This document shows positions 2,422-62,116 of a DNA stretch of 64,000 nt, in pieces. The stretch's first letter is position 1. Each line of letters begins with the position of its first letter. The notes below the pieces were generated by a model. That model was not told where the DNA came from and ran no database searches. It was given only the letters and a program-made list of their open reading frames with translations. This stretch comes from Betaproteobacteria bacterium Ga0077526 (lineage in GTDB: Bacteria; Pseudomonadota; Gammaproteobacteria; Burkholderiales; Ga0077523), in contig LNDV01000025.1 in the NCBI GenBank assembly GCA_001464765.1, forward strand, positions 247,679 to 311,678. The letters are read 5' to 3'. A program made the translations under genes and the position numbers.

Positions 2422-5400
2422 CGGAGCATTTCCTCTTCCTGGCCGGCGCGCGCCGGTCCCGTTGGGGCGGTGTCCTGCGGCACGGAGCCGCCCCAACGTC
2501 TGCGAAGGAACTTCTCGAAGTCGTCGAGATAGGTGTAGACCACCGGTACCACCAGCAGCGTCAGGAACGTCGAGGCGAGCACCCCGCCGATGACCGCGTG
2601 GGCCATCGGGGCGCGCGTCTCGGCGCCCTCCCCGACGCCGAGCGCCAGGGGCAGCATGCCGAACACCATGGCCGCCGTCGTCATCAGAATCGGGCGCAGC
2701 CGGACCCTCGCCGCCTCGTGAATCGCGTGGGTCCGGTCGTCGCCGCGGGCAACAGCTTGGTTCACGAAGTCCACCAGCAGGATCGCGTTCTTCGTGACCA
2801 GCCCCATCAGCATGATGAAGCCGATCGTCGAGAAGATGTTGAGCGTGCTGCGCCACAGGAGCAACGCCCCCAGGACCCCGATCAGCGACAGCGGCAGCGA
2901 CACCATGATAGCAACTGGCTGCAGGAAGCTGCGGAACTGGGATGCCAGAATCAGATAGATGAATACGACCGCCAGGGCGAGCGCCTGGACCGCGTAGGCG
3001 GACGTCTCGGCGATATCCTTGGCGGAGCCACCCATCACGAAGCGGTAGCCCGGCGGAATGGCGATGTCCGCGAGCCTAGCCTTCAGTTCCTTGCTCACGT
3101 CCCCGGCCGGCCGGCCGTGCACGTTGGCCGACACGAGCACTTCGCGCTGAAGATCCCGGCGGTTGATCTGCGTGGGTCCCGTCGCCGGGACGAACTGCGC
3201 GACCTGTCGCAGGGCGATCATCCGGGCCTCCCCGTCCACTGCGGACCGCGCGACGTACAGCCGTTCGAGATCGGCCCCGGTGCGGCGATCTTCCTGCGGC
3301 AGCCGCACCCGCACGTCGTAGTTCTCCGCATCGGGCGCCTTCCAGGTGCTGATCGCCTCGCCGGCGATCAGCGGCCGCAGCGCACCTCCCACTTCCGCGA
3401 GTCCGACGCCGAGGTCGCTCGCCGCCTCGCGGTCGAGGCGGACCTCGAGGGTGGGCTTCGCAGCCTTCAGGGAACTGTCCAGATCCACCGGACCGGGTAC
3501 CGAGCGCAGGGCCGCCATCACCTCCCGCGACAGGCGCTCCAGCACGGCGATGTCCTGCCCCTGGATGCTCACCTGCAGCGGCTTGCCGCTCGACACGGAC
3601 GAGTACTGGCCTATGTACGTGACGTCGATCCCGGCGATTCGGGCCAGCCGCTCGCGGAACGGATGCGCGAGCGCCTTCTGCGACAGCTTGCGCTCGGCCC
3701 TCGGCTTGAGCCGCACGAACACGGTGCCGTAGTTCTTGCCCAGCACGAAGCCGGTGTTCAGCGTGGAATAGGTCTGCTCGACCTCGGCGAACTCACGCAG
3801 CGCCGCCTCCGCCTGCAGCACCTTGGCCCGCGTGAACTCCAGCGTCGAGCCCGGCGCGGTGTTGAGCTGCACGACGATCTCCGACAGATCCGCCTCGGGC
3901 AGGAACTCGGTGCCGATCGCGGGCACGAGCGCGAAGCTGCCGAAGAAGCTCGCCGCCGCGATGCCGATGGCGGTCTTGCGCCACACGAGCGCCCAACGGA
4001 CCATGGACTGGTAGAAGCCGCTCACCCGCTGGAAGCCCCACTCGAACGCCTGCAGCACCCGCGCGATCGGCCCCCTGCCGCGGGTCTCCAGCGCATCGGG
4101 GTCGTGCCACACGCTGGAGAGCATGGGGTCCAGCGTGAAGCTCACCAGCAGGGACAGCAGCACCGCACAGGTGACGGTCATGCCGAACGGGTAGAAGAAG
4201 CGTCCGATGATCCCGCCCATGAAGGCGACCGGCACGAACACCGCGCAGATGGTGAAGGTCGTGGCGAGCACCGCGAGGCCGATCTCGTTCGTGCCGTCGA
4301 GCGAGGCCTGGCGGTGGTCCTTGCCCATGCCGAGGTGGCGCACGATGTTCTCGCGCACCACGATGGCGTCGTCGATGAGCAGGCCGACGCTCAGGGACAT
4401 GCCCATGAGCGTCATCACGTTGAGCGAGTAGCCCAGCGCGTACATCGCCGTGAAGGTGCCGATCAGCGCGATCGGCAGCGTGAGCCCGGTGATCACCGTG
4501 CTGCGCCAGGAGCGCAGGAACAGGAACACGATCAGCACCGTGAGGCCGGCGCCCTCGACGATCGTGCTGCGCACGTTGGCGACGGAATTGCGGATGCCCT
4601 GCGAGGTGTCGCGCACGAAGGAGATCTTCACGTCAGGCGGCAGCTGGGACACGAGTTCGGTGACGACGCTGCGCACGCCCGCCACCACGTCGAGCGTGTT
4701 GGCGCTCTGTGCCTTGACGATGTCGATCGCCACGCCCGGCGTGCCGTTGATGAGTGCGACGCTCTCCTCCTCCTGCTGGCCATCGACGGCCTGCGCCACC
4801 TGCCACAGGTAGATCGGCGAGCCGCCGCGCCGCGCGACGATGATGTCGCGGAACTGCGCCACGTCGCGGATCCGGCCCTGCACCTTCACGAGCCGCTCCG
4901 ACTCGTTCGACGACAGCGCGCCGGCGGGCAGTTCCTGGTTTTCCTCGCGGATCGCGCGGATCACCTGGTCCACGCCCACACCGAGGGATTCCATCTCGGC
5001 CGGGCGCAGCACGATCTGCACTTCGCGGCGCGTCCCGCCGACCCGGGTGACCCGTCCCACGCCGCGGGCGCTTTCCACGCGCTTCATCACGACCTGGTCC
5101 GCGAGCATCGTGATCTCGCGCAGGCTCCGCGTGGGCGAGCTCAGCGCGAGCGACAGGATCGGGAACTCCTCGGGGTTGAATCGCGACACGACGGGCTCGT
5201 CCACTTCCTTGCGGAAGGCGGCGCGCGCACCGGCGACTTTCTCGCGCACATCCTGCGCGGCCCGTGACGGATCCGTCTTGAGGTCGAACTCTGCGATGAC
5301 CAGCGACTGGCCTTCGTACGATCGGGAGGTGAGCGTCTTCAGGCCGCTGATGGTGTTGACGGCCTCCTCGATGCGACGGGTGATGTCGGACTCCACCACC

Positions 5401-20149: not shown

Positions 20150-21151
20150 CTACCGGTGGACAGGCTCAGGAGATGAGCCACCCGTCTGCGCAGGGTATCG
20201 ATCGAGCGCACGGCGCAGTTCCGCGGCCACGGCCTGCCGCAGGCCGGCAGGATTCAGGACTTCCACCTCCGCGCCGTGCTTGAGGATGTCCATGGCGAGT
20301 TCCCGCGCATCGCTGTAGGGCAGTGCGAGCACGTAGCTGCCGTCGTCCGCGAGGATCCCGCGCTGCTCCGGGTGCCAGATCTCGCGCGCCACCCAGCGCG
20401 CACGCTCGGGCGTGAAGCGCAGTTCCGCCCATTGCACGTCGGCGCCGGAGAAGATGCCGTAGCCGCTCGCCAGTTCACGGTCCATGTCAGTGTCCGGCAC
20501 GTCGCGGGCGGGCGCGTCCACGGTGAGGACCGACGTGATCGCATCCACCGAGAAACTGCGCAGACCGTCGCGCAGATGGCACCAGGCGTCGAGGTACCAG
20601 TTGTCGCGGTAGTACACGAGTCGCTGGGGCGACAGCTCGCGTTCCACCGTCGCGCCCGAGGCCCGGTTGAAATGGACCACGCGGACTCGACGCCGGTCCA
20701 GGAGCGCCTGGGCAAGGACACCGAACTGCGCCGAGGCGACGGGTCGCCGCGCCACGTGCAGCAGCCGGACGCGCTGACGGACTTCGGCCGCGGCATGGCC
20801 GTGGCTGCCCAGCAGCTTCTCCAGGCGTTCACCGATGGGCCCGAGGTGCGGATCGAGGACACCGGGGTCGATGCTGGCGAGCAGTTGATGCATGGTGAGG
20901 AGCGCGTGCGCCTCGGCCGCGGTGAACCATAGCCCCGGCAGTTCCTGCTCCGGATTGTTCGAGTCCAGCCGGTACCCGCCCGCGTCCCGGTCCCACACGA
21001 CCGGCACGCTCAGGCGGTCCCGGAGGTAGGCCATGTCGCGCTTGAAGGTGGCGCGCGATACCTCGAGGTCTTCGAGGAAGGTCTCGATCGGCACGAGGCG
21101 CCGCGACTGCAGCAGCCGCTTGATGCGATAGAAGCGTTCGGTCCGATCCAT
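20150..21151 (-). CDS. HTH-WYL domain transcriptional regulator (YafY/DriD-like)
   Basis: N-terminal HTH (MDRTERFYRIKRLLQSRRLVPIETFLEDLEVSRATFKRDMAYLRD), then a WYL core (YYRDNWYLDAWCHLRDGLRSFSVDAI), then a WCX-like C-terminus. Confidence 0.85.
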   Translation of the reverse strand: MDRTERFYRIKRLLQSRRLVPIETFLEDLEVSRATFKRDMAYLRDRLSVPVVWDRDAGGYRLDSNNPEQELPGLWFTAAEAHALLTMHQLLASIDPGVLDPHLGPIGERLEKLLGSHGHAAAEVRQRVRLLHVARRPVASAQFGVLAQALLDRRRVRVVHFNRASGATVERELSPQRLVYYRDNWYLDAWCHLRDGLRSFSVDAITSVLTVDAPARDVPDTDMDRELASGYGIFSGADVQWAELRFTPERARWVAREIWHPEQRGILADDGSYVLALPYSDARELAMDILKHGAEVEVLNPAGLRQAVAAELRRALDRYPAQTGGSSPEPVHR

Positions 21152-30071: not shown

Positions 30072-30147
<76 letters not shown>

Positions 30148-30169
30148 CTTAGTTTGACCGCAGTACCGG

Positions 30170-30245
30170 GTCCCCATCGTCTAGAGGCCTAGGACATCGC
30201 CCTTTCACGGCGGTAACCGGGGTTCGAATCCCCGTGGGGACGCCA
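30170..30245 (+). tRNA. tRNA-Glu (anticodon TTC)
   Basis: GTCCCCATCGTCTAGAGGCCTAGGACATCGCCCTTTCACGGCGGTAACCGGGGTTCGAATCCCCGTGGGGACGCCA, with anticodon loop CTTTCAC. Confidence 0.9.
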
Positions 30246-39805: not shown

Positions 39806-40925
39806 GCGGACCGTAACACTTGCATAGGAAGTATCATCGTGTCCATGGAGGGCGCGATGAGACTGAAACTTACCAAGACCTAACTGGTGGAACTGCAGCG
39901 GCAAGCGAATGCGAGGAACGGTCGAGCTGATTCGGCGCGCCACGCGCGCCTGATTCTGCTGCTGTCCGAGGGACTGACCTGGGCCGAGATTCGCGCGAAG
40001 CTCGATTGCAGTGACAGCTACATCGATCGTTGGAGCAAGCGATTTGCGACAGACCGACTCGCCGGACTGTTCGCCCGTCACGCTGGACGCGAGCGCTACA
40101 AGGTGACCGATGGAATCGAAGCGCGCGTTCTGGCCTGGACGACGAAGCGCAAGCCAGCCGATGGCTCGACGCACTGGTCCTCGCGCAAGCTTGCGACTGA
40201 ACTCGGCGGCGGCATCTCGCACATGACGGTAGCGCGCATCTGGGCCAAGCACGGGCTCAAGCCGCATCGGCTCGAAGGCTACATCGCCTCGAATGATCCG
40301 GACTTCGAGACCAAGGCGGCCGACGTCATCGGGCTCTATCTCAATCCGCCGCAGCACGCAGCGGTGTTCTGTGTCGATGAGAAGACGGCGATACAGGCGC
40401 TCGATCGCAAGGACCCGGTGCTGCCGCTGTCGCCGGGGCGCGCCGAGCGGCATGGGTTCGAGTATTTCCGTCACGGCACGCTGTCGCTGTACGCAGCCTT
40501 CAACACCAAGACGGGAGAGGTGTTGGGCAAGCCCGCCGAGCGACATACCTCGGCCGAGTTCGTCGCCTTCCTCACCGATCTGGTGGCCAACCAGCCCGCG
40601 AACAAAGAGATCCACGTGATCGCTGACAACCTCTCGGCGCACAAGACGAAGCGGGTCGAGGAATTCCTGGCCGAGAACAAGAATGTTCATTTGCACTTCA
40701 CCCCTACGTACTCGTCGTGGCTCAACCAGGTCGAACTGTGGTTCGCCAAGATCGAGCGCGACGTCATCGCCCGCGGAGTGTTCACCTCCGTGTCCGATCT
40801 GAAGAGGAAACTCATGCGATACATCCGCCAGTACAACAAGCAGGCCAAGCCCATGAAGTGGAAGTACTTCGATGCATCGCGCAGAATCACTCCCGATTCA
40901 ATCGTTACAGTCCACTAGCGTCAGA
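39806..40925 (+). mobile_element. IS630-family insertion sequence (~1.1 kb) with imperfect terminal inverted repeats
   Basis: Left end CTAGCGGACCGTAAC, right end reverse-complemented CTAGTGGACTGTAAC (13 of 15 match). A single transposase ORF between them. The boundaries are approximate. Confidence 0.7.
39857..40918 (+). CDS. IS630-family DDE transposase, interrupted by an in-frame TAA after codon 8 (ATG 39857 ... TAA 39881-39883; GTG restart at 39887)
   Basis: MRLKLTKT*LVELQRQANARNGRADSARHARLILLLSEGLTWAEIRAKL... is the IS630 N-terminal HTH. The DDE core with D...D...E spacing is present in the C-terminal half. It may be a pseudogene or may depend on the downstream GTG. Confidence 0.65.
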
Positions 40926-44102: not shown

Positions 44103-44265
44103 CGCCTGCCGTTTCGAGTATCAACGGCTCTTGGAGAGTCGCGTCCTGGATGGATGAGACTCGACGCCGCAGTTTAAACGGCTCAGGGGGCAAGCACTCC
44201 AAGTGAGCGCGCCGATCCGCCCAAATGAGCCCCCGCCGCTAGAAAGCGCGGCAGGGGGCTCACCC

Positions 44266-45402
44266 TCAACGCAACGTCACCAACCCGTTCAACACCTGGT
44301 CCAGACCGCCGAACACCGAGATCTTGTCGATGCGCTCGGCAATGCGTTCCAGAGTCTCGAGTTCCTTCATCCGCAGCGCCACCGGACTGCCTTCCATCAC
44401 CTTGGCCGTGTTCAGCAACGACCGGGTGGCTGCCGTCTCTTCGCGTCGCCGAATCGCGTTGGCCTCGGCTGCTTTCTCGGCCTCGACGACCTGTGCCAGG
44501 ATCGTTCTCATCTCTCCCGGCAGGACAATGTCCTTCACCCCGACGCCATCCACCTCGATCCCGTGGGGCTCGAGCCTGGACCGCACGTGGGCCGACACCA
44601 CGTCATCGATCACCGACTTGTTCTCCAGCAACTCGTCGAGGGTGCGCGTACCGACCGCCGAACGCAGACCGAACTGGCACTCCCGGTACAGAATGTCCGC
44701 CGGCTTGGCCAGTTGCTTGAAGGCCTTCAGAACGTCCTGAAAACGCCAGGTGGCCGACAGGTTCAGACGCAGACTCACCTTGTCCCGGGTAAGAATCTCC
44801 TGGCCGGTGATCTCCAGCACCTGGAGACGCATCTCCACGACGGCGACCGCCACGTCCCGGTTGAACTTCCAGAACGCGTACGTGCCCGGGGCCAGCATCC
44901 GATCGATCACACCATCGATCCACAAGACACCGGCGCCGTGTTCCGGCACCTGCACCTGATGCACGCCCGCCAGACCGGCAACCGGGCGCACACGAGCGGG
45001 CGACTGCAGCAGCCGCGAGGTCAGTGCAGCCGGCACTTCAGCCGACTCAGCGATGTCGATCACCTCGACGCCCACATCCACCTGCCCTTTCCAGTACAAG
45101 CCCCGGGTACTCGGGGCGAGCACTTCGACCAGCACGCCGTTCTCGGTGCGCAACCCGACCTGAGTCTCGGAGAGTTCGACTCGTACGAACTCCTCGGCGA
45201 CCAGCGCCGGCTCCTTCGCCATGAAGTAGTCTGCAAGCGGATGGACGAACGCGGGGCGCTCCAGGGCAAAGGTCTCCACGGCCCAGGTGTCGATGCCGTT
45301 GAACACCCAGTGCTTGCCGGGTCTCAGCAGGCGGTCGAAGTCGCCGTTGCGAAACAGCAACGCGCGTTCGTTCTTCTTCACAGTGATACGTTGAATCTTC
45401 AT
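44266..45402 (-). CDS. SPFH/band 7 domain protein (stomatin/flotillin-like)
   Basis: 378 aa with a central SPFH domain and a C-terminal coiled-coil rich in E/A/R (VVEAEKAAEANAIRRREETAATR). Confidence 0.8.
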   Translation of the reverse strand: MKIQRITVKKNERALLFRNGDFDRLLRPGKHWVFNGIDTWAVETFALERPAFVHPLADYFMAKEPALVAEEFVRVELSETQVGLRTENGVLVEVLAPSTRGLYWKGQVDVGVEVIDIAESAEVPAALTSRLLQSPARVRPVAGLAGVHQVQVPEHGAGVLWIDGVIDRMLAPGTYAFWKFNRDVAVAVVEMRLQVLEITGQEILTRDKVSLRLNLSATWRFQDVLKAFKQLAKPADILYRECQFGLRSAVGTRTLDELLENKSVIDDVVSAHVRSRLEPHGIEVDGVGVKDIVLPGEMRTILAQVVEAEKAAEANAIRRREETAATRSLLNTAKVMEGSPVALRMKELETLERIAERIDKISVFGGLDQVLNGLVTLR

Positions 45403-45681
45403 GGGACTCTCCTTGTCCTCTTGGGTACTGATGAATGGGTGCCGTTACAGCGAAGGCGGCGGACACCGAGTGCCGTGAACCGGGCCAACCGGAGAACCTG
45501 GGCAGCCTCCCCTGAGAAGGCCACTTCGGCTGTCTGACGGCGCAATTCGGGCGAGCCCATTGCCTGGCCACCTCCACTGACGGGGATGGGATTCCCACGA
45601 GCCGGCACAGCCACGAGGCTGTTCCAGCGCCGCAATCGGCCCATCACCCGCGTTCGGCGGGGTACTTCCAATCGCACTGTA

Positions 45682-45750
45682 TGGAGCGGGACTCGAACCC
45701 GCGACTCGCGACGGTTTAGATCGCTGCTCTACCTGACTGAGCTATCCGCA
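45682..45750 (-). pseudogene. tRNA-like sequence (a): canonical D-arm and T-arm, aberrant anticodon loop, unpaired acceptor stem
   Basis: Minus strand: CTGCGGA-TA-GCTC-AGTCAGGTA-GAGC-A-GCGAT-CTAAACC-GTCGC-GAGTC-GCGGG-TTCGAGT-CCCGC-TCCA.... The 3' acceptor strand does not pair with the 5' strand, and the anticodon reads AAA. Confidence 0.45.
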
Positions 45751-45754
45751 GTAA

Positions 45755-45807
45755 GGGTCACCCGGGACTCGAACCCGGCACCTTTCAGTGCAACCGTTGA
45801 TGACCCC
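45755..45807 (-). pseudogene. tRNA-like fragment (b): T-arm plus a pairing acceptor stem only (~53 nt)
   Basis: GGGTCAT...CCGGG-TTCGAGT-CCCGG-GTGACCC-T. The D-arm or anticodon arm is missing. Confidence 0.4.
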
Positions 45808-45999
45808 CTATCCGCTGCATCCGGCGACGCGACATATGCGGCCACGACGGACATTGCCGGTTGCCGCACATCGGCGGGGCGGGCGTTAACCCGAACCCCT
45901 GACCTGTGAGCGTTCGCCCTCAACAGCAGATTCTTCTATCCCCGAGCATCGCTGCTCGGTAGAAATTCTTTCGGCATGCCCGCGCTCCCGCATCGAGGG

Positions 46000-46071
46000 C
46001 ACGCCCGGGTGGACTCGAACCACCGACCTCGACCTTCGGAGAGTCGCGCTCTTCCTCTGAGCTACGGACGT
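46000..46071 (-). tRNA. tRNA-Arg (anticodon CCG)-like; structurally complete with A1-U72 and G73, no encoded CCA
   Basis: ACGTCCG-TA-GCTC-AGAGGAA-GAGC-G-CGACT-CTCCGAA-GGTCG-AGGTC-GGTGG-TTCGAGT-CCACC-CGGGCGT-G. All stems pair, with one U-G. It sits inside the island next to the decayed copies. Confidence 0.55.
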
Positions 46072-46164
46072 GTCGTCGGGCCTTGGGCCCCCGCCAGGCG
46101 CTCCCCGACAGCGCCGCGACGCCCACACTGTCTCGGCTCCGCGCGGAACGTCGTCTGCGGGTTG

Positions 46165-46234
46165 TGCCCCGTGCACGATTCGAACGTGCGACCTCCGGAT
46201 TCGTAATCCGGCGCTCTCGCTCCGCTGAGCTATC
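46165..46234 (-). pseudogene. tRNA-Arg (anticodon ACG)-like sequence (d) lacking a pairing 5' acceptor strand
   Basis: ...TA-GCTC-AGCGGAGCGA-GAGC-G-CCGGA-TTACGAA-TCCGG-AGGTC-GCACG-TTCGAAT-CGTGC-ACGGGGC-A. The 7 nt upstream (TTACTGA) cannot pair with ACGGGGC. Confidence 0.45.
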
Positions 46235-47257
46235 AGTAACGGTCGCGGCGCGCCTGGACACACCCGAAGGGGAGCGGATGGCTCGCCTCACCAGCACGGC
46301 CGTGGCAACGCCACGTTCTTCGCTCGGTGCGACTCCGCCTCCCATGCAAGGTCGATCCACGGCCAGAGCCGAGACCGCCTTGCGCCAAATTGTCAAAGGA
46401 CGTTCGCCGACGAACGGCGCTGCGATCCCTCGACCGCAGATCTGCGAGGTGGCGCGGACCAAACAGGGTGAAACGAAAAACAAAAAGCCCGGATCCTTGC
46501 GGATTCCGGGCCTCTGCGAGCAGAGCGTGGACGGTGCGCGCTAGGCGCTACCCTCCCCCGGAAAAGTCGAAATCCCTCGCCGTTGCCATGTCGGAAAATG
46601 CCCCACAACAGCCGGCACCGACACCACGCGCCATCCCTTCGGGCATGGCATCCCGACACCGCGCATGCGCGCACACGGACCGATGCTCGGTCGGAATGCG
46701 GCAGGGGTCGGGCGGAATACGTCGTTTGCGTTCATGGGAGCGACAGCGCCTAGGCGCCAGCGTGGGTCAGCGATGGCGAGAAATGTAAATACTATTTACT
46801 TTCCCGTCAACCCCTTTGTCGAATCTGCGCGAAATGCGGGGCGGCGCACGCCGATCGCGTTCGTGGCGATCGAGGGCGAAGCCCGCGTGTCCCTTCCGCG
46901 GACGCCGAAATCCCGAGGCGTTGGTTGATCCCCCCGATCGCCTGACCTGCTCCCCGCCCGCAGACTGGCGCGACGTCGGGTCATCGTGAAGAGAAGCGAC
47001 GCAACCAACCACGCCGCACGTCACCGGAGCGTCTTGCACTGGTCTGCATTCGGGGCGCTCCCAGGCATGCAGATGCGGCCGGCCGGACAGTTTTCAGCAG
47101 GCGATCTCCGACACTTCGCCGAAAAATCTCGTATCTGACTGACCGGGCCCGAACGGTCTTCGAGAGCGGCCTGATTGTTGGCCGTCGAGGGGTCCGCGTT
47201 GTCGCGGAATTCCCCGCTGGCCCAGGCTGATCGCGCTATTGAGTCGAATACAAACCC

Positions 47258-47830
47258 ATGAAAACCTACGATATCCACGAAGCTGCCGAATTCCTGAAAA
47301 TCGATCGCACGACCGCCCTGGAACTCGCCGGATCTAGTGAACTTCCCGGGGCAAAGGTGGGACGTTCCTGGGTCTTCCTGGAGTCGGATCTGATCGAGTA
47401 CCTCCGCGATCGGGTCCGCCAGCAAACCAACGAGCGTCGGGCGCTGGTTCGAACCCAGGCCCTGGCGATCCCAGGCCACCCCGCGGAGGGCCCACCGCGA
47501 CGACGGCGTCGCCGCCCGCCGCCTTCGCTGGACGATGTCACCGTCCCGGCCAGCCCGCCCGCCCCCCCCGCCCCCCCCGTTCCTCAAGCACTGGGAATGG
47601 GTGAACAGGGCGCCATTCGCTTCGAGGTCGCTAAGTGGAGTGGGCTGACTCCCGGACTTCGGGCGCGGAGCACGCCGGCGCCAATGAAACGGACCGATGG
47701 CTTCGCATCCGCAATGGCGGAGTTTCCAGGATGTAGTCGCACGTGCCGAGGATCGAGGAGAACCTCAACGGCCGCCCGCCCCTTGAGCAAGACAGCCGAC
47801 CGCCAGAACGCGGAGACCCCGCTCGAATAG
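47258..47830 (+). CDS. Helix-turn-helix DNA-binding protein (excisionase/AlpA-like HTH_17) with a low-complexity Pro/Arg-rich tail
   Basis: MKTYDIHEAAEFLKIDRTTALELAGSSELPGAKVGRSWVFLESDLIEYLRD is the HTH_17/Xis-type motif. The C-terminal 120 aa are low complexity and may be over-extended. Confidence 0.55.
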   Translation: MKTYDIHEAAEFLKIDRTTALELAGSSELPGAKVGRSWVFLESDLIEYLRDRVRQQTNERRALVRTQALAIPGHPAEGPPRRRRRRPPPSLDDVTVPASPPAPPAPPVPQALGMGEQGAIRFEVAKWSGLTPGLRARSTPAPMKRTDGFASAMAEFPGCSRTCRGSRRTSTAARPLSKTADRQNAETPLE

Positions 47831-48308: not shown

Positions 48309-48626
48309 ATGGTCCGCAAGCGCGAGGGGGCGCGGCGCGACCTGGTCGAGCACTTCGTCTATCTGGCGGAGAACGCCGGGCTCGACGTGGCCGAACGCTT
48401 CCTGAGCAACGCCGAAGCCACCTTCGGCGACCTTGCGCAGCAGCCCAGGATCGGCGCGCCGCTCAACCTGCAGCGCCCTGAGCTGGTCAACCTCCGCAAG
48501 TGGCGAATAAAGGACTTCGACAATCACCTCGTCTTCTACGAGCCACGCCCGGATGGGGTGTCCATCGTGCGTGTGCTGCACGCGGCCAGCGACTGGTGGG
48601 GCCTACTGGGACTGGCAGACACCTGA
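48309..48626 (+). CDS. parE: Type II toxin, ParE/RelE family
   Basis: 6 nt downstream of the parD stop. Sequence ...RRDLVEHFVYLAENAGLDVAERFLSNAEATFGDLAQQPRIGAP...WRIKDFDNHLVFYEPRPDGVSIVRVLHAASD is the ParE fold signature. Confidence 0.8.
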   Translation: MVRKREGARRDLVEHFVYLAENAGLDVAERFLSNAEATFGDLAQQPRIGAPLNLQRPELVNLRKWRIKDFDNHLVFYEPRPDGVSIVRVLHAASDWWGLLGLADT

Positions 48627-59164: not shown

Positions 59165-62116
59165 ATGACCGACGACAACTCGCCGGAAGCAGAAGGCACG
59201 GACGCCGCATCGGCTCCGCCCCCCTCTCCCAAACCGGCACGGTTTCCGGTCGTCGGGCTCGGCGCGTCCGCAGGCGGGCTGGAAGCGCTGCAGGGATTTC
59301 TGCGCAACGTCCCGGCCGACAGCGGCATGGCGTTCGTGGTCGTCTCGCACATGGACCCCGATCACCCCAGCATGCTGCCCGAGATCCTTCGGCGCGCCGC
59401 GATGATCCCCGTGACCGAGGCGCAGGACGGCATGGTCTTCGCGCCGAACCACGCTTACGTCGCACCGCCCAACAGCGAACTGTCCCTCGTGGCTGGCGCG
59501 CTCTGCGTTACCACGCCCGATCTGCCGCGCGGTCAGCGCATGCCGATCGACCATTTCTTCGAGTCGGTGGCGTCGGACCGCGGCGAACTCGCAGTCGGCG
59601 TGGTCCTCTCCGGGACCGGAACCGACGGCACCTTCGGCCTGCGCGCCATTCTGGGCAACGGCGGACTCAGCGTCGCGCAGGATCCCGCGACGGCCACGTT
59701 CGACGGCATGCCTGCCAGCGCGATCGCCGCCGGCTTCGCGCGCCGGGTGCTGCAGGTGGCCGAGATGCCCGCCGCGATCATTGCCGATCTGGACATCCGG
59801 CGCTCCGGCGTACGGCAGCCGCTGACGCCCGCGCAGATCCGGGGCCTCAACCGGGTCCTGTCGGCGCTGCGCTCCGTGAGCGGCCAGGATTTCTCGCACT
59901 ACAAGAAGGCGACTGTCTCCCGGCGCGTGACGCGTCGGATGCAGGTGCACCACATCGAGGACCTGGAGATCTACGCCCGGTACGTTCAGGAACATCCGAC
60001 CGAGGCCAGGGCGCTGGTCGCCGAACTGCTCATCAACGTGACCAGCTTCTTCCGGGACCCGGAAGCCTTCGCCGTCCTGAAGCGGGACGTGCTGTCGCGC
60101 ATCGTGGCCAGCGCAGCGGACGGCCACGTGATCCGCGTGTGGGTGGCCGGCTGTTCCTCGGGCGAGGAAGCCTATTCGATCGCCATCCTGCTCCGTGAGC
60201 TCATGGCAGAAACGCACGCCGCGCTGAAGGTCCAAATCTTCGCCACCGATGTCGACGATGATGCAGTCGCTCTTGCACGGGTCGCTGTCTATCCCGCCGC
60301 GAGCGTGGCCGGCGTAGGCCGCGAACGTCTTGAGCGATTCTTCGTAAAGGACGATTCGGGATACCGGATCTCGCGAGAGATCCGGGACATGGTGATCGTC
60401 GCCACGCAGAATGTCGTGAAGGACCCGCCGTTCACCAAGCTCGACCTCGTAAGCTGCCGCAACCTGCTCATCTATCTGGATGCCGCCGCCCAGGAGCAGG
60501 TGATCGCATCGTTCCACTACGCGCTGAAGCCGGGCGGCGCGCTGTTCCTGTCCCCGTCGGAGAGCATCGGCGATCAGACGGATCTCTTCGCCCCCGTGGA
60601 CCGCACGTGGAAGATCTACGAGGCAAAGCCCAAGGCCTCACGCACCCTGAACAGCTTGCCCGGTCACTCGGGTAGCCACGCGACCCAGTCCGTTCCGCAG
60701 AAACCCACGACAAGCCCGGAACCCAAACCCGCCCTGCTCAACCCGACGGAGATCATCCGGCGCGCGCTGCTGCAGTGGTTCGCCCCGCCGGCCGTGCTGA
60801 CCGACGCGACGGGCAACATCCTCTTCGTGCACGGCGAGACCGGCCGCTATCTGCGCCCGGCCCCCGGGCAGGCCACGTTCAACGTGATCGAGATGGCGCG
60901 CGAGGGTCTGCAACTGCCCCTGCGCAAGGCGTTTCAGCTGCTGCGCGACGACGCCAAGGGCAGCGTGGATGTCGAGGCCGCATTCCGCGCCGATGACGCC
61001 GATGAGATCGTGCGCCTCGGCGTTCGAGCGGTGAGCGCATCGGCAGGCGGCGAGACGCTCGCGCTGGTCACGTTCGAGGATCCCGCCGAGGCTTCCCGCA
61101 AGCTTCGCCGCAAGGCGAGCCGCCGCGGACCTGCATCGGTCCCGGTCCTGCGAGTCGAGGAACTCGAGCGCGAACTCGCCTACACGACGGAGAACCTGCA
61201 GGCCACCATCGAGGAGAAGCAGGCGGCCATCGAGGAACTCCAGTCGACGAACGAGGAACTGCAGTCCACCAACGAGGAGATGCAGTCCACCAACGAGGAA
61301 CTCGAAACCTCCAAGGAGGAGCTGCAGTCGGTCAACGAGGAGATGACCACCGTCAACGCCGAACTCCGCGCGAAGATCGAGCAGCTGGCCGGCACCCGGA
61401 ACGACCTCAAGAACCTGCTCGACAACATCAGCATCGGCACGATCTTCCTGGACCGGGACCTCGCCATCCGCAGCTTCACGCGGGAAGCGCTGGCCATCTA
61501 CCATCTGGTCAAGACCGACGTGGGCCGCCCGCTCAGCGACTTCAAACCGGACATCGACGAGGAAGACCTGCTCGCCGATGCCGAGGCCGTCATGGCCTCG
61601 CTCGTGCCGAGGGAGCGCGAGGTTCGCACCCCTGCCGGCGCCTGGTACCTCGCGCGGGTTCAGCCCTATCGCACGCTGGAGAACGTGATCGATGGTGTGG
61701 TGCTCACCTTCTCGGACATCACGCCGCGCGTCAAGGCCGACGCCGTGCTTCGCGAGGCCCGCGAGTTCGCCGAGGCCATCGTCGACACCGTCCGCGATCC
61801 GCTGCTGGTCCTCGACGAGAATCTCGATATCGTCGCCGCGAGCCGCTCCTTCCACGCGACCTTTCGCACGAGTGCAGCGGGCATCGTCGGCCACCGGTTC
61901 TTCGAGCTCGACGACGGACAATGGGATTCGCCCGTGCTCCGCGAGGCGCTGCAGCAGTTGCTGCCGCAGAATCGCGTCATCGAGGACCTCCAGATCGAGC
62001 GGCAGGTCCCGGGCAAGGGAATCATGAGGATCCGGCTCAATGCGAGGCGACTGCACGGCGAAGGGACGCCCAGCCCGAAGATCCTGCTGTCGCTGTCGGT
62101 CGACGGGACAGCGTGA
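59165..62116 (+). CDS. CheB methylesterase - CheR methyltransferase fusion protein with a coiled-coil and C-terminal PAS domains
   Basis: AAGGAGAAGGG SD. CheB catalytic motifs (VVGLGASAGGLEAL, GTGTDGT), CheR SAM-binding motif (VWVAGCSSGEEAYS), heptad repeats EELQSTNEELQSTNEEMQSTNEELETSKEELQSVNEEM, and PAS modules. Confidence 0.85.
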   Translation: MTDDNSPEAEGTDAASAPPPSPKPARFPVVGLGASAGGLEALQGFLRNVPADSGMAFVVVSHMDPDHPSMLPEILRRAAMIPVTEAQDGMVFAPNHAYVAPPNSELSLVAGALCVTTPDLPRGQRMPIDHFFESVASDRGELAVGVVLSGTGTDGTFGLRAILGNGGLSVAQDPATATFDGMPASAIAAGFARRVLQVAEMPAAIIADLDIRRSGVRQPLTPAQIRGLNRVLSALRSVSGQDFSHYKKATVSRRVTRRMQVHHIEDLEIYARYVQEHPTEARALVAELLINVTSFFRDPEAFAVLKRDVLSRIVASAADGHVIRVWVAGCSSGEEAYSIAILLRELMAETHAALKVQIFATDVDDDAVALARVAVYPAASVAGVGRERLERFFVKDDSGYRISREIRDMVIVATQNVVKDPPFTKLDLVSCRNLLIYLDAAAQEQVIASFHYALKPGGALFLSPSESIGDQTDLFAPVDRTWKIYEAKPKASRTLNSLPGHSGSHATQSVPQKPTTSPEPKPALLNPTEIIRRALLQWFAPPAVLTDATGNILFVHGETGRYLRPAPGQATFNVIEMAREGLQLPLRKAFQLLRDDAKGSVDVEAAFRADDADEIVRLGVRAVSASAGGETLALVTFEDPAEASRKLRRKASRRGPASVPVLRVEELERELAYTTENLQATIEEKQAAIEELQSTNEELQSTNEEMQSTNEELETSKEELQSVNEEMTTVNAELRAKIEQLAGTRNDLKNLLDNISIGTIFLDRDLAIRSFTREALAIYHLVKTDVGRPLSDFKPDIDEEDLLADAEAVMASLVPREREVRTPAGAWYLARVQPYRTLENVIDGVVLTFSDITPRVKADAVLREAREFAEAIVDTVRDPLLVLDENLDIVAASRSFHATFRTSAAGIVGHRFFELDDGQWDSPVLREALQQLLPQNRVIEDLQIERQVPGKGIMRIRLNARRLHGEGTPSPKILLSLSVDGTA

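Follow-up and report, generated by a model that had tools for sequence, protein, structure and literature searches.

A cluster of tRNA-like sequences upstream of a Band-7 gene in a Burkholderiales genome is probably the decayed copy of a composite RNA-repair locus

Introduction

In the passages of Wang et al. 2018 (bioRxiv 10.1101/312249) that deal with these operons, RtcB is encoded beside a Band-7 protein and a predicted non-coding RNA, b7a-tRNA, which "strongly resembles an authentic tRNA", was thought to be functionally analogous to the Y RNA YrlA and was at that time without experimental validation; the same passages treat the YrlA Y RNAs of rsr-yrlBA-rtcBA operons as stable trans-acting RNAs. 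Here we analyze a cluster of four tRNA-like sequences that lies directly upstream of a Band-7 gene in a 64,000-nucleotide stretch of DNA from Betaproteobacteria bacterium Ga0077526 (GenBank assembly GCA_001464765.1, contig LNDV01000025.1, positions 247,679 to 311,678 of the forward strand); this whole stretch is called the window, and all positions are counted from its first nucleotide. An earlier note on the cluster had taken it for a set of decayed tRNA copies left behind by nested integrations of tRNA-targeting elements or, alternatively, for island-borne tRNA-derived small RNAs.

The prediction of b7a-tRNA (band-7-associated tRNA) reportedly originated with Burroughs and Aravind in 2016, YrlA and other bacterial Y RNAs are said to have been treated together with Ro60 by Chen and colleagues in 2014, and the long arrays of tRNA genes known as L-arrays were reportedly the subject of work by Tran and colleagues in 2016. 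The vault particle, which contains the major vault protein (MVP) with an SPFH-like shoulder, TEP1 with a TROVE domain, and vault RNA, has been drawn on as an analogy in the RNA-repair literature. L-arrays are linked to an HNH gene, neighbor and are co-regulated with rtcB in cyanobacteria, and are induced by translational stress, according to the portion of Santamaria-Gomez et al. 2021 (PMC8421152) that concerns them. Measured against these systems, the cluster in the window contains elements of two kinds: two of the four sequences are the core of a leader RNA of the Band-7 gene, and the other two are remnants of a tRNA array.

Results

Layout of the cluster

The window is G+C-rich and encodes PEP-CTERM and GGDEF/EAL proteins. 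Four minus-strand tRNA-like elements with canonical T-loops, called (d), (c), (b) and (a) in their order along that strand, occupy 45675-46239. The T-loop core GTTCGARTC is found four times at 45690-46185 on the minus strand and seven times in the whole 64 kb, where 1.6 copies are expected by chance; further T-loop-like matches in the window, at 20957 and 48686, are at chance level. All four elements fall within a 1.1-kb stretch that has no credible open reading frame (ORF) and that lies directly upstream of the Band-7/SPFH gene (slipin or stomatin-like; 44266-45402, minus strand, 378 amino acids, Pfam Band_7 at 3.6e-30) on the same strand.

Elements (b) and (a) are tandem tRNA mimics

The locus was compared with 80 genome loci, all from Burkholderiales, with Band-7 at 64-80% protein identity and with neighboring genes identified by tblastn. 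Nearly all of these 80 loci have a pair of T-loops at a distance of 64-82 nt from each other, located about 255-400 nt upstream of the start of Band-7; this pair is the (b)+(a) tandem. In the window the tandem shares its strand with the Band-7 gene and lies 273-405 nt upstream of it, a spacing that agrees with 63 other loci.

Element (b) (45756-45806, minus strand) is a miniature tRNA mimic made of a 7-bp acceptor-like stem (GGGGTCA/TGACCCU, 45806-45800 and 45762-45756), a GG-containing linker, a GAAA-capped hairpin (45790-45779) and a T-arm (45778-45762). A D arm and an anticodon arm are absent both in the window and in every other locus, and a contiguous stem of the acceptor type, 4-7 bp long and of varied sequence, is present in 63 loci. 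The sequence CCA stands between (b) and (a) in 56 of 65 loci, typically as N-CCA right after the acceptor strand of (b), but it is absent in the window, which reads UUA, and in L087, the closest relative of the window locus with known context (below). Element (b) is thus a D-armless mini-tRNA, and the conserved GG in the linker 3′ of its 5′ strand could stand in for a D-loop.

Element (a) (45678-45751, minus strand) is a tRNA-like module of the b7a type that ARAGORN calls as "tRNA-Phe(AAA)" and that scores 44.4 bits against the Rfam tRNA model. Its copy in the window has two non-standard acceptor pairs in the Rfam alignment and the anticodon loop CUAAACC, with a pyrimidine (C) at position 37; in the family of (a)-type elements only 4 bp of the acceptor are conserved. 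In the 46 relatives whose (a)-type element is called as a tRNA by ARAGORN there are 22 different "anticodons", and in many of the loci that carry an RtcR gene (below) a GNRA-capped hairpin replaces the anticodon arm. Because the anticodon varies freely or is missing while the D and T arms stay invariant, the alignments indicate that (a) is under selection for tRNA shape and cannot be a decoding tRNA.

A seed alignment of 28 curated loci, from which the window was left out and whose structure was drawn by hand, was the source of a covariance model of the tandem, R1. It superseded an earlier MAFFT and RNAalifold analysis of 70 loci that had given only 17 pairs and had misaligned the variable hairpin of (b). 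In the seed 94.8% of the cells are paired, compared with 38-49% when the partners are slid, double compensatory changes occur in 20 of 35 pairs, and the observed values were reached by none of 500 shuffles. All six acceptor pairs of (b) and all five pairs of the anticodon-like stem of (a) covary; the D arm of (a) and the cores of both T arms are invariant. When 84 sequences were searched with R1, in 74 of them a single full-length match, with a score of 68 bits or more, lay upstream of the Band-7 gene. The match in the window (45675-45807, minus strand; model positions 1-132 of 132) scores 111.1 bits (E = 1.4e-24), which is mid-table among the 74 locus matches, and weaker R1 matches in the window are at chance level.

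Four Variovorax loci (L081, L082, L084 and L086) have no full-length R1 match listed; in them, at about 4480-4660, the (b) module is seemingly missing or replaced and the D arm of the tRNA-like module is altered (TGCTCATGGTTGAGC); they make up a divergent leader sub-type.

A structured leader RNA of about 490 nucleotides

Conservation across 79 loci extends far beyond the two mimics, from about 45931 to the ATG of the Band-7 gene, and together with an RNAalifold prediction it delimits a structured leader RNA of that gene at 45441-45931 on the minus strand. The fold, predicted by RNAalifold on 39 loci with a mean identity of 68%, has 137 pairs and is made up of a 5′ domain (45931-45810; 40 pairs, 94.8% paired compared with 32-54% for slid partners), the tRNA-like modules (45806-45682; 33 pairs, 92.5% compared with 35-47%), a small hairpin (45673-45662; four pairs, 96% paired) and a long 3′ rod (45658-45441; 58 pairs, 90.1% compared with 33-46%), all on the minus strand. 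In the 5′ domain, the tRNA-like modules and the 3′ rod alike the observed covariation was reached by none of 200 column shuffles. Rfam 15 contains no family that matches the leader region beyond tRNA itself.

The 3′ rod ends just before the ribosome-binding site, the leader as a whole ends about 40 nt before the start codon, and no terminator was found between it and the Band-7 gene. Loci with an RtcR gene have a sigma-54 promoter (TGGCAC-N5-TGGCA) whose position, about 35 nt before the leader's first conserved block, places the whole leader within the operon transcript there; no sigma-54 promoter was seen by eye upstream of the leader in the window. The leader RNA is probably transcribed with the operon.

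Sister loci carry the complete operon

RtcB is encoded downstream of Band-7 in about 65 of the 80 loci, a divergent RtcR gene stands upstream in about 30, and RlaP is frequent. Two versions of the upstream part are found. Loci without RtcR have 13-22 tRNA genes on the same strand, followed by an HNH endonuclease gene and then the leader, so that their order is tRNA array, HNH, leader of about 490 nt, Band-7 and RtcB, often followed by RlaP; in the other version a divergent RtcR gene and a sigma-54 promoter take the place of the array and HNH. Arrays of this size are located at 2141-3819 in L007, 1615-3874 in L085, 2494-4808 in L088 and 687-3714 in L069 (positions within each locus), and the HNH gene is at 3793-4434 in L007 and is present in L088 as well. 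In L088, SSB, DUF932 and ParE genes come after the module and point to a mobile element.

The lead to these operons was a DNA search of plasmid and chromid records, in which only tRNA genes were matched and one match, in Burkholderia cenocepacia, was informative; a Mycolicibacterium match from the plasmid search was set aside as merely a plasmid tRNA array. The B. cenocepacia locus (L005) contains a divergent RtcR gene, a tRNA-like pair, Band_7, RtcB and RlaP (Pfam assignments) and is an RtcB RNA-repair operon. Its tandem consists of a T-arm mini-helix and then a tRNA-like element with GCCGGC-GAAA-GCCGGC in place of the anticodon arm.

Elements (c) and (d) are remnants of a tRNA array

Element (c) (45997-46072, minus strand) is an intact tRNA-Arg(CCG) gene: it is called by ARAGORN, matches the Rfam tRNA model at full length with 62 bits and has a 7-bp acceptor that includes A1-U72. 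Its 3′ end is G-CCC, with CCA not encoded, and it is 91-92% identical to the tRNA-Arg(CCG) that is the last array gene of L007, L088 and L013. Element (d) (46162-46239, minus strand) is a tRNA-Arg(ACG) pseudogene with a local Rfam match of 41.5 bits at 46173-46232 (model positions 8-63). Its 5′ bases TTACTGA (46239-46233), which stand where the array genes have ACCTCGT, do not pair with its 3′ strand ACGGGGC (46172-46166), and its 3′ end is A-CAA, not A-CCA. Aligned with six tRNA-Arg(ACG) genes of the arrays, (d) is homologous to them from position 8 to the 3′ acceptor strand, including an unusually long D loop, and it is 87-90% identical to the tRNA-Arg(ACG) of the L007 and L088 arrays.

Upstream of (d), 46360-46562 on the minus strand is the non-coding 5′ flank of the array: it has 71-85% DNA identity to the DNA just upstream of the first array tRNA in L007, L013, L069, L085 and L088, and to L087. 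Its tblastx matches fall in all frames, which shows that it is not coding. Within it, a hairpin that resembles an intrinsic terminator and is accompanied by a T run (about 46527-46474) precedes a TTGACA box (about 46397), and the stretch may be the promoter or a regulatory region of the array. At the other end, 45932-45996 on the minus strand resembles the final ~25 nt of the HNH gene together with its stop-codon hairpin and so marks the junction of an HNH deletion; no HNH remnant was found in the window at the protein level by tblastn. The window is colinear with the array loci, and 44265-45933 (Band-7 and leader) matches them at 75-80% identity. Judged by this colinearity, (c), (d) and the 5′ flank are what deletions of the other array tRNAs, HNH and RtcB left behind. 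An L-array has more than ten tandem tRNAs and HNH; the window has one intact and one broken tRNA and no HNH, and is therefore a remnant of such an array, not a member of the class.

Three further observations concern the DNA in and around (d). The hexamer TTACTG stands before the D-arm sequence ATAGCTCAG in both (d) (46233-46239) and (a) (45752-45757) on the minus strand, which may be the trace of a past recombination of the module with an array tRNA or may be a coincidence; the flanks farther upstream are unrelated. A G+C-rich inverted repeat that brackets (d) (46094-46120 and 46242-46257; 10 bp perfect, 16 bp at 88%) was dropped: by our estimate chance alone would produce about 2-3 repeats of this kind in 1.3 kb of DNA with 65% G+C, and relatives do not share it. 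The only sigma-70-like promoter match in the 44-48 kb region is at 46782-46810 on the minus strand (TTGACG-17-TACATT), and it is conserved in L087 and L088 (83-85% over 31-40 nt).

The four elements differ in how much of a tRNA they are. A full cloverleaf with a 7-bp acceptor is found in (c), over positions 1-71, and (a), (b) and (d) fall short of it; the anticodon is conserved among orthologues for (c) (CCG) and (d) (ACG) and is not for (a). Much of what the earlier note had described is borne out by these results, namely four minus-strand elements with textbook T-arms in this place, a complete tRNA-Arg(CCG) cloverleaf with A1-U72 in (c), an Arg(ACG)-type (d) whose 5′ strand cannot pair, and an AAA anticodon with a faulty acceptor in (a). 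It was right that (b) has an acceptor and a T-arm but not that it has only those two, as a small GAAA-capped hairpin is also present, and its count of three defective acceptor stems was one too high: the stem of (b) pairs perfectly over 7 bp, and only those of (a) and (d) are imperfect. The description "decayed tRNA copies" fits (d), but (c) is intact and (a) and (b) are conserved with compensatory changes; the alternative of tRNA-derived small RNAs borne by an island comes near the truth for (a) and (b), which are tRNA mimics within a non-coding RNA. The four are neither all standard tRNAs nor all without tRNA homology, the two outcomes that the note had named as speaking against its interpretation.

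The Band-7 gene and the condition of the orphan locus

The Band-7 protein has more than 7800 relatives; its closest homologues are from Burkholderiales, and identical copies are present on metagenome contigs. Its C-terminal half resembles stomatin, which has been solved as 16-mer assemblies (structure matches), and residues 1-150, which lie outside the Pfam Band_7 and stomatin matches, are nevertheless well conserved in the family. Since no membrane or hydrophobic segment is evident in its sequence, the protein may be a soluble member of the SPFH group that has an additional domain at its N terminus.

The Band-7 ORF is intact, and dN/dS is 0.12 in comparison with L087 and 0.12-0.17 in comparison with relatives. 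L087 is 87% identical in Band-7 protein, is likewise an orphan without RtcB and has haem-uptake genes downstream. The leader (from about 45931 on) and the array 5′ flank are common to L087 and the window, but L087 has no array tRNAs. About 90% of the consensus leader pairs are intact in the two loci alike; between them there are five double-compensatory and 18 one-sided pair-keeping changes, and substitutions are rarer in paired (19%) than in unpaired columns (33%). These comparisons suggest that the Band-7 gene and the RNA fold in the window are still under purifying selection. Both orphans have lost the CCA after (b) and have an altered CAUGCCGC motif, which means that in the orphan lineage some part of the function has been either relaxed or changed. 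Presumably Band-7 and the RNA survive as an orphan pair that works with a ligase encoded elsewhere.

Comparison with described systems

By the description of Wang et al. 2018, the (b)+(a) modules of the leader would be the b7a-tRNA of Burroughs and Aravind 2016. Common to both are a tRNA-like non-coding RNA immediately upstream of a Band-7 gene on the same strand and homologous loci with RtcB, RtcR and RlaP, and the window has the position, the R1 homology and a tRNA fold without anticodon identity. The linkage to RtcB, RtcR and RlaP, which is present in most sister loci, is absent in the window, as in the second orphan, L087, and, compared by description, the element here is a tandem of two mimics inside a covarying leader of about 490 nt and not a single tRNA-like gene. 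The window locus is thus an orphan, partly eroded member of the predicted b7a-tRNA class, together with L-array remnants.

YrlA and Ro60 (Rsr) resemble this locus in that a tRNA-mimicking non-coding RNA inside an RtcB repair operon is paired with a ring-forming scaffold protein. The YrlA family (RF02553) matches the T-arm of (b) and the D-arm of (a) with 27.0 bits (E = 0.006), far below its threshold of 69 bits, and no Rsr/TROVE gene was found among the Pfam calls for 21 kb around the locus or among the scanned ORFs; membership in the YrlA family was accordingly rejected and the likeness kept as an analogy. The partner here is an SPFH protein and not Ro, and where YrlA has one tRNA-like domain closed by a Ro-binding stem, the leader has two cloverleaf-like modules with additional 5′ and 3′ domains.

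The likeness to L-arrays lies in the colinearity of (c), (d) and the 5′ flank with the sister loci's arrays of 13-22 genes and HNH, and the difference in the array's direct fusion, in these Burkholderiales, to a Band-7/RtcB operon that has a tRNA-mimic leader. An array fused to Band-7/RtcB is not mentioned ("band 7", "SPFH" or "tRNA-like") in the available portion of Santamaria-Gomez et al. 2021 (PMC8421152). With the vault the locus has in common an SPFH-type cage or ring protein and a small structured RNA, which is an analogy only, and the Band-7 protein matches stomatin-type SPFH domains and not MVP.

Genomic surroundings

Upstream and downstream of the locus are an IS630-family transposase (DDE_3; 39887-40918, plus strand), an AlpA-like HTH_17 protein (47258-47830, plus strand) and a ParE toxin (48309-48626, plus strand) with ParD upstream of it. 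A 24-kb stretch of lower G+C content (about 30-55 kb) starts right after tRNA-Ala and tRNA-Glu genes at 30072-30245. An additional ARAGORN call, of a 71-nt tRNA-Thr(CGT) at 61572-61642 on the plus strand within long ORFs, is below the Rfam tRNA gathering score and probably false.

Discussion

The above comparisons make it quite probable that the cluster represents a composite RNA-repair locus in decayed form, in which (b) and (a) are the tRNA mimics of the leader RNA, (c) and (d) are what remains of the array, and HNH and RtcB have been lost. How such a locus would work can be proposed from its parts. By analogy with Y RNA and Ro60, the leader RNA could be the tRNA-shaped partner of an oligomeric, stomatin-like ring of Band-7. 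In the resulting ribonucleoprotein the tRNA-shaped modules might recruit or present damaged tRNAs, or might imitate the substrates of tRNA-handling enzymes during repair; RtcB, RlaP, RNase P and the CCA enzyme are candidates for the enzymes at this scaffold, and the neighboring array would supply spare or decoy tRNAs. RlaP adds 1-2 nucleotides to damaged RNA 3′ ends, as stated in the part of PMC12776372 that treats it. A role of the RNA as a cofactor in RNA repair is thus suggested by analogy.

A more far-reaching view, which we offer tentatively and hold to be somewhat short of an even chance, is that b7a-tRNA is not a lone tRNA-like gene but the central part of a large structured RNA, not charted before, of about 490 nt with about 130 conserved pairs (a 5′ domain, a D-armless mini-tRNA ending in N-CCA, a cloverleaf whose anticodon is free, and a rod of 220 nt) that would partner a soluble stomatin-like cage protein. 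In Burkholderiales this RNA would have been fused to long tRNA arrays and RtcB as an island of "spare tRNAs plus tRNA repair", and the RNA and Band-7 pair would be able to persist alone. If the pair does persist alone, as in the window, its function would go beyond helping a neighboring ligase. The two-module architecture, the covarying leader of about 490 nt and the direct fusion to tRNA arrays in Burkholderiales may be new.

Several points weigh against a repair locus whose leader RNA acts as a cofactor. Tblastn (E = 10) gave noise only for RtcB, RtcR, RlaP and HNH in the 64-kb window, which leaves homology to sister loci as the only link of the window locus to repair. In the window the leader deviates from the family consensus, which may be a sign of partial decay: CCA has become UUA after (b), the CAUGCCGC motif reads AUAUGUCGC, the acceptor of (a) has a 3-nt insertion, position 37 is C, and 13 of the 136 consensus pairs are broken. 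The leader fold was predicted on the same alignment that scored it, which gives it an advantage over the slid controls, and the equation with b7a-tRNA rests on the description of Wang et al. 2018 and on what the abstract of Burroughs and Aravind 2016 reportedly says. Finally, the leader RNA is contiguous with the mRNA, and a purely cis-regulatory role fits the sequence data equally.

Such a role, in which the 490-nt RNA is a 5′ untranslated region that controls expression or processing of the Band-7/RtcB mRNA and not a trans-acting cofactor, is the alternative that survives best, although we consider it on the unlikely side. It could operate by cleavage of the modules by RNase P or RNase Z, by binding of a tRNA-recognizing protein, or by sensing of tRNA-cleaving toxins. 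The RNA stretches unbroken from the promoter region to within 40 nt of the start codon, belongs to the operon transcript in the RtcR-type loci with their sigma-54 promoter, and ends in a rod just before the ribosome-binding site with no terminator before the gene, all of which is what a regulatory leader would look like. It is, however, very large and elaborate for a leader, its tRNA mimicry parallels that of the trans-acting YrlA Y RNAs, and the RNA and Band-7 have been kept together without RtcB in two genomic contexts, which argues for a partnership of RNA and protein. Cis-regulatory and trans-acting roles may also coexist.

It is rather improbable that the whole locus in the window, the leader RNA included, is a dead relic in the process of being lost. 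Absence of the array, of HNH and of RtcB, loss of the CCA and CAUGCCGC motifs and breakage of about 10% of the consensus pairs are what would be expected of a relic, but the intact Band-7 ORF with its dN/dS of 0.12 is not, and a second orphan (L087) has the same leader and gene in a different genomic context. In addition, pair-preserving changes between the two orphans exceed the expectation for neutral drift, and paired columns evolve more slowly.

The origin favored in the earlier note, in which the truncated copies are displaced attachment-site halves and thus scars of nested, tRNA-targeted integrations, is very unlikely. The lower G+C content of the region relative to its flanks, the mobile-type genes nearby (IS630 transposase, ParDE, AlpA-like HTH_17) and the incomplete cloverleaf of (d), whose 5′ strand does not pair, do resemble tRNA attachment-site fragments. 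No integrase was called within about 10 kb on either side, however, and no copy of any element is present elsewhere in the window, where the best direct repeat is 15 nt long, at chance level (E = 0.03) and unrelated to tRNAs. The part of the tRNA that is kept is also the wrong one for an attachment site, since (d) retains positions 8-76 and not just the 3′ half, and aligns with the array tRNA-Arg(ACG); (a) and (b) covary as a conserved structured RNA at a fixed distance from Band-7 in 74 of the 84 sequences searched, and the order of (d), (c) and the flank is that of the tRNA arrays. Equally hard to credit is that all four are ordinary decoding tRNAs of a mobile array and that (a) and (b) are just more pseudogenes: 13-22 bona fide tRNA genes do lie immediately upstream in sister loci, and ARAGORN and Rfam do score (a) as a tRNA, but among (a)-type elements the anticodon is not conserved and is often replaced by a tetraloop, while covariation of the stems and invariance of the D and T arms are the mark of selection on shape and not of decay, (b) never has a D or anticodon arm and yet covaries in every acceptor pair, and the tandem is also present in RtcR-type loci without any array.

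If the cluster is indeed a decayed copy of a composite RNA-repair locus, its interest lies mainly in the family to which it belongs. RtcB-based RNA-repair operons are widespread, and their Ro/Y-RNA version has been studied, whereas the Band-7 version is still a prediction of 2016 without an Rfam entry. For the latter we supply a covariance model, a covariation-supported structure in which two mimics are embedded in a large RNA, and about 75 loci that include compact orphan pairs; the model, structure and locus set make the partnership of RNA and protein directly testable. For annotation, the family accounts for recurrent "odd tRNAs" to which tRNA finders assign random or undetermined anticodons; the tRNA-Phe(AAA) call in the window is an example. 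Two phenomena that had been described separately, HNH-linked long tRNA arrays and RtcB repair, are joined in Burkholderiales in one physical module.

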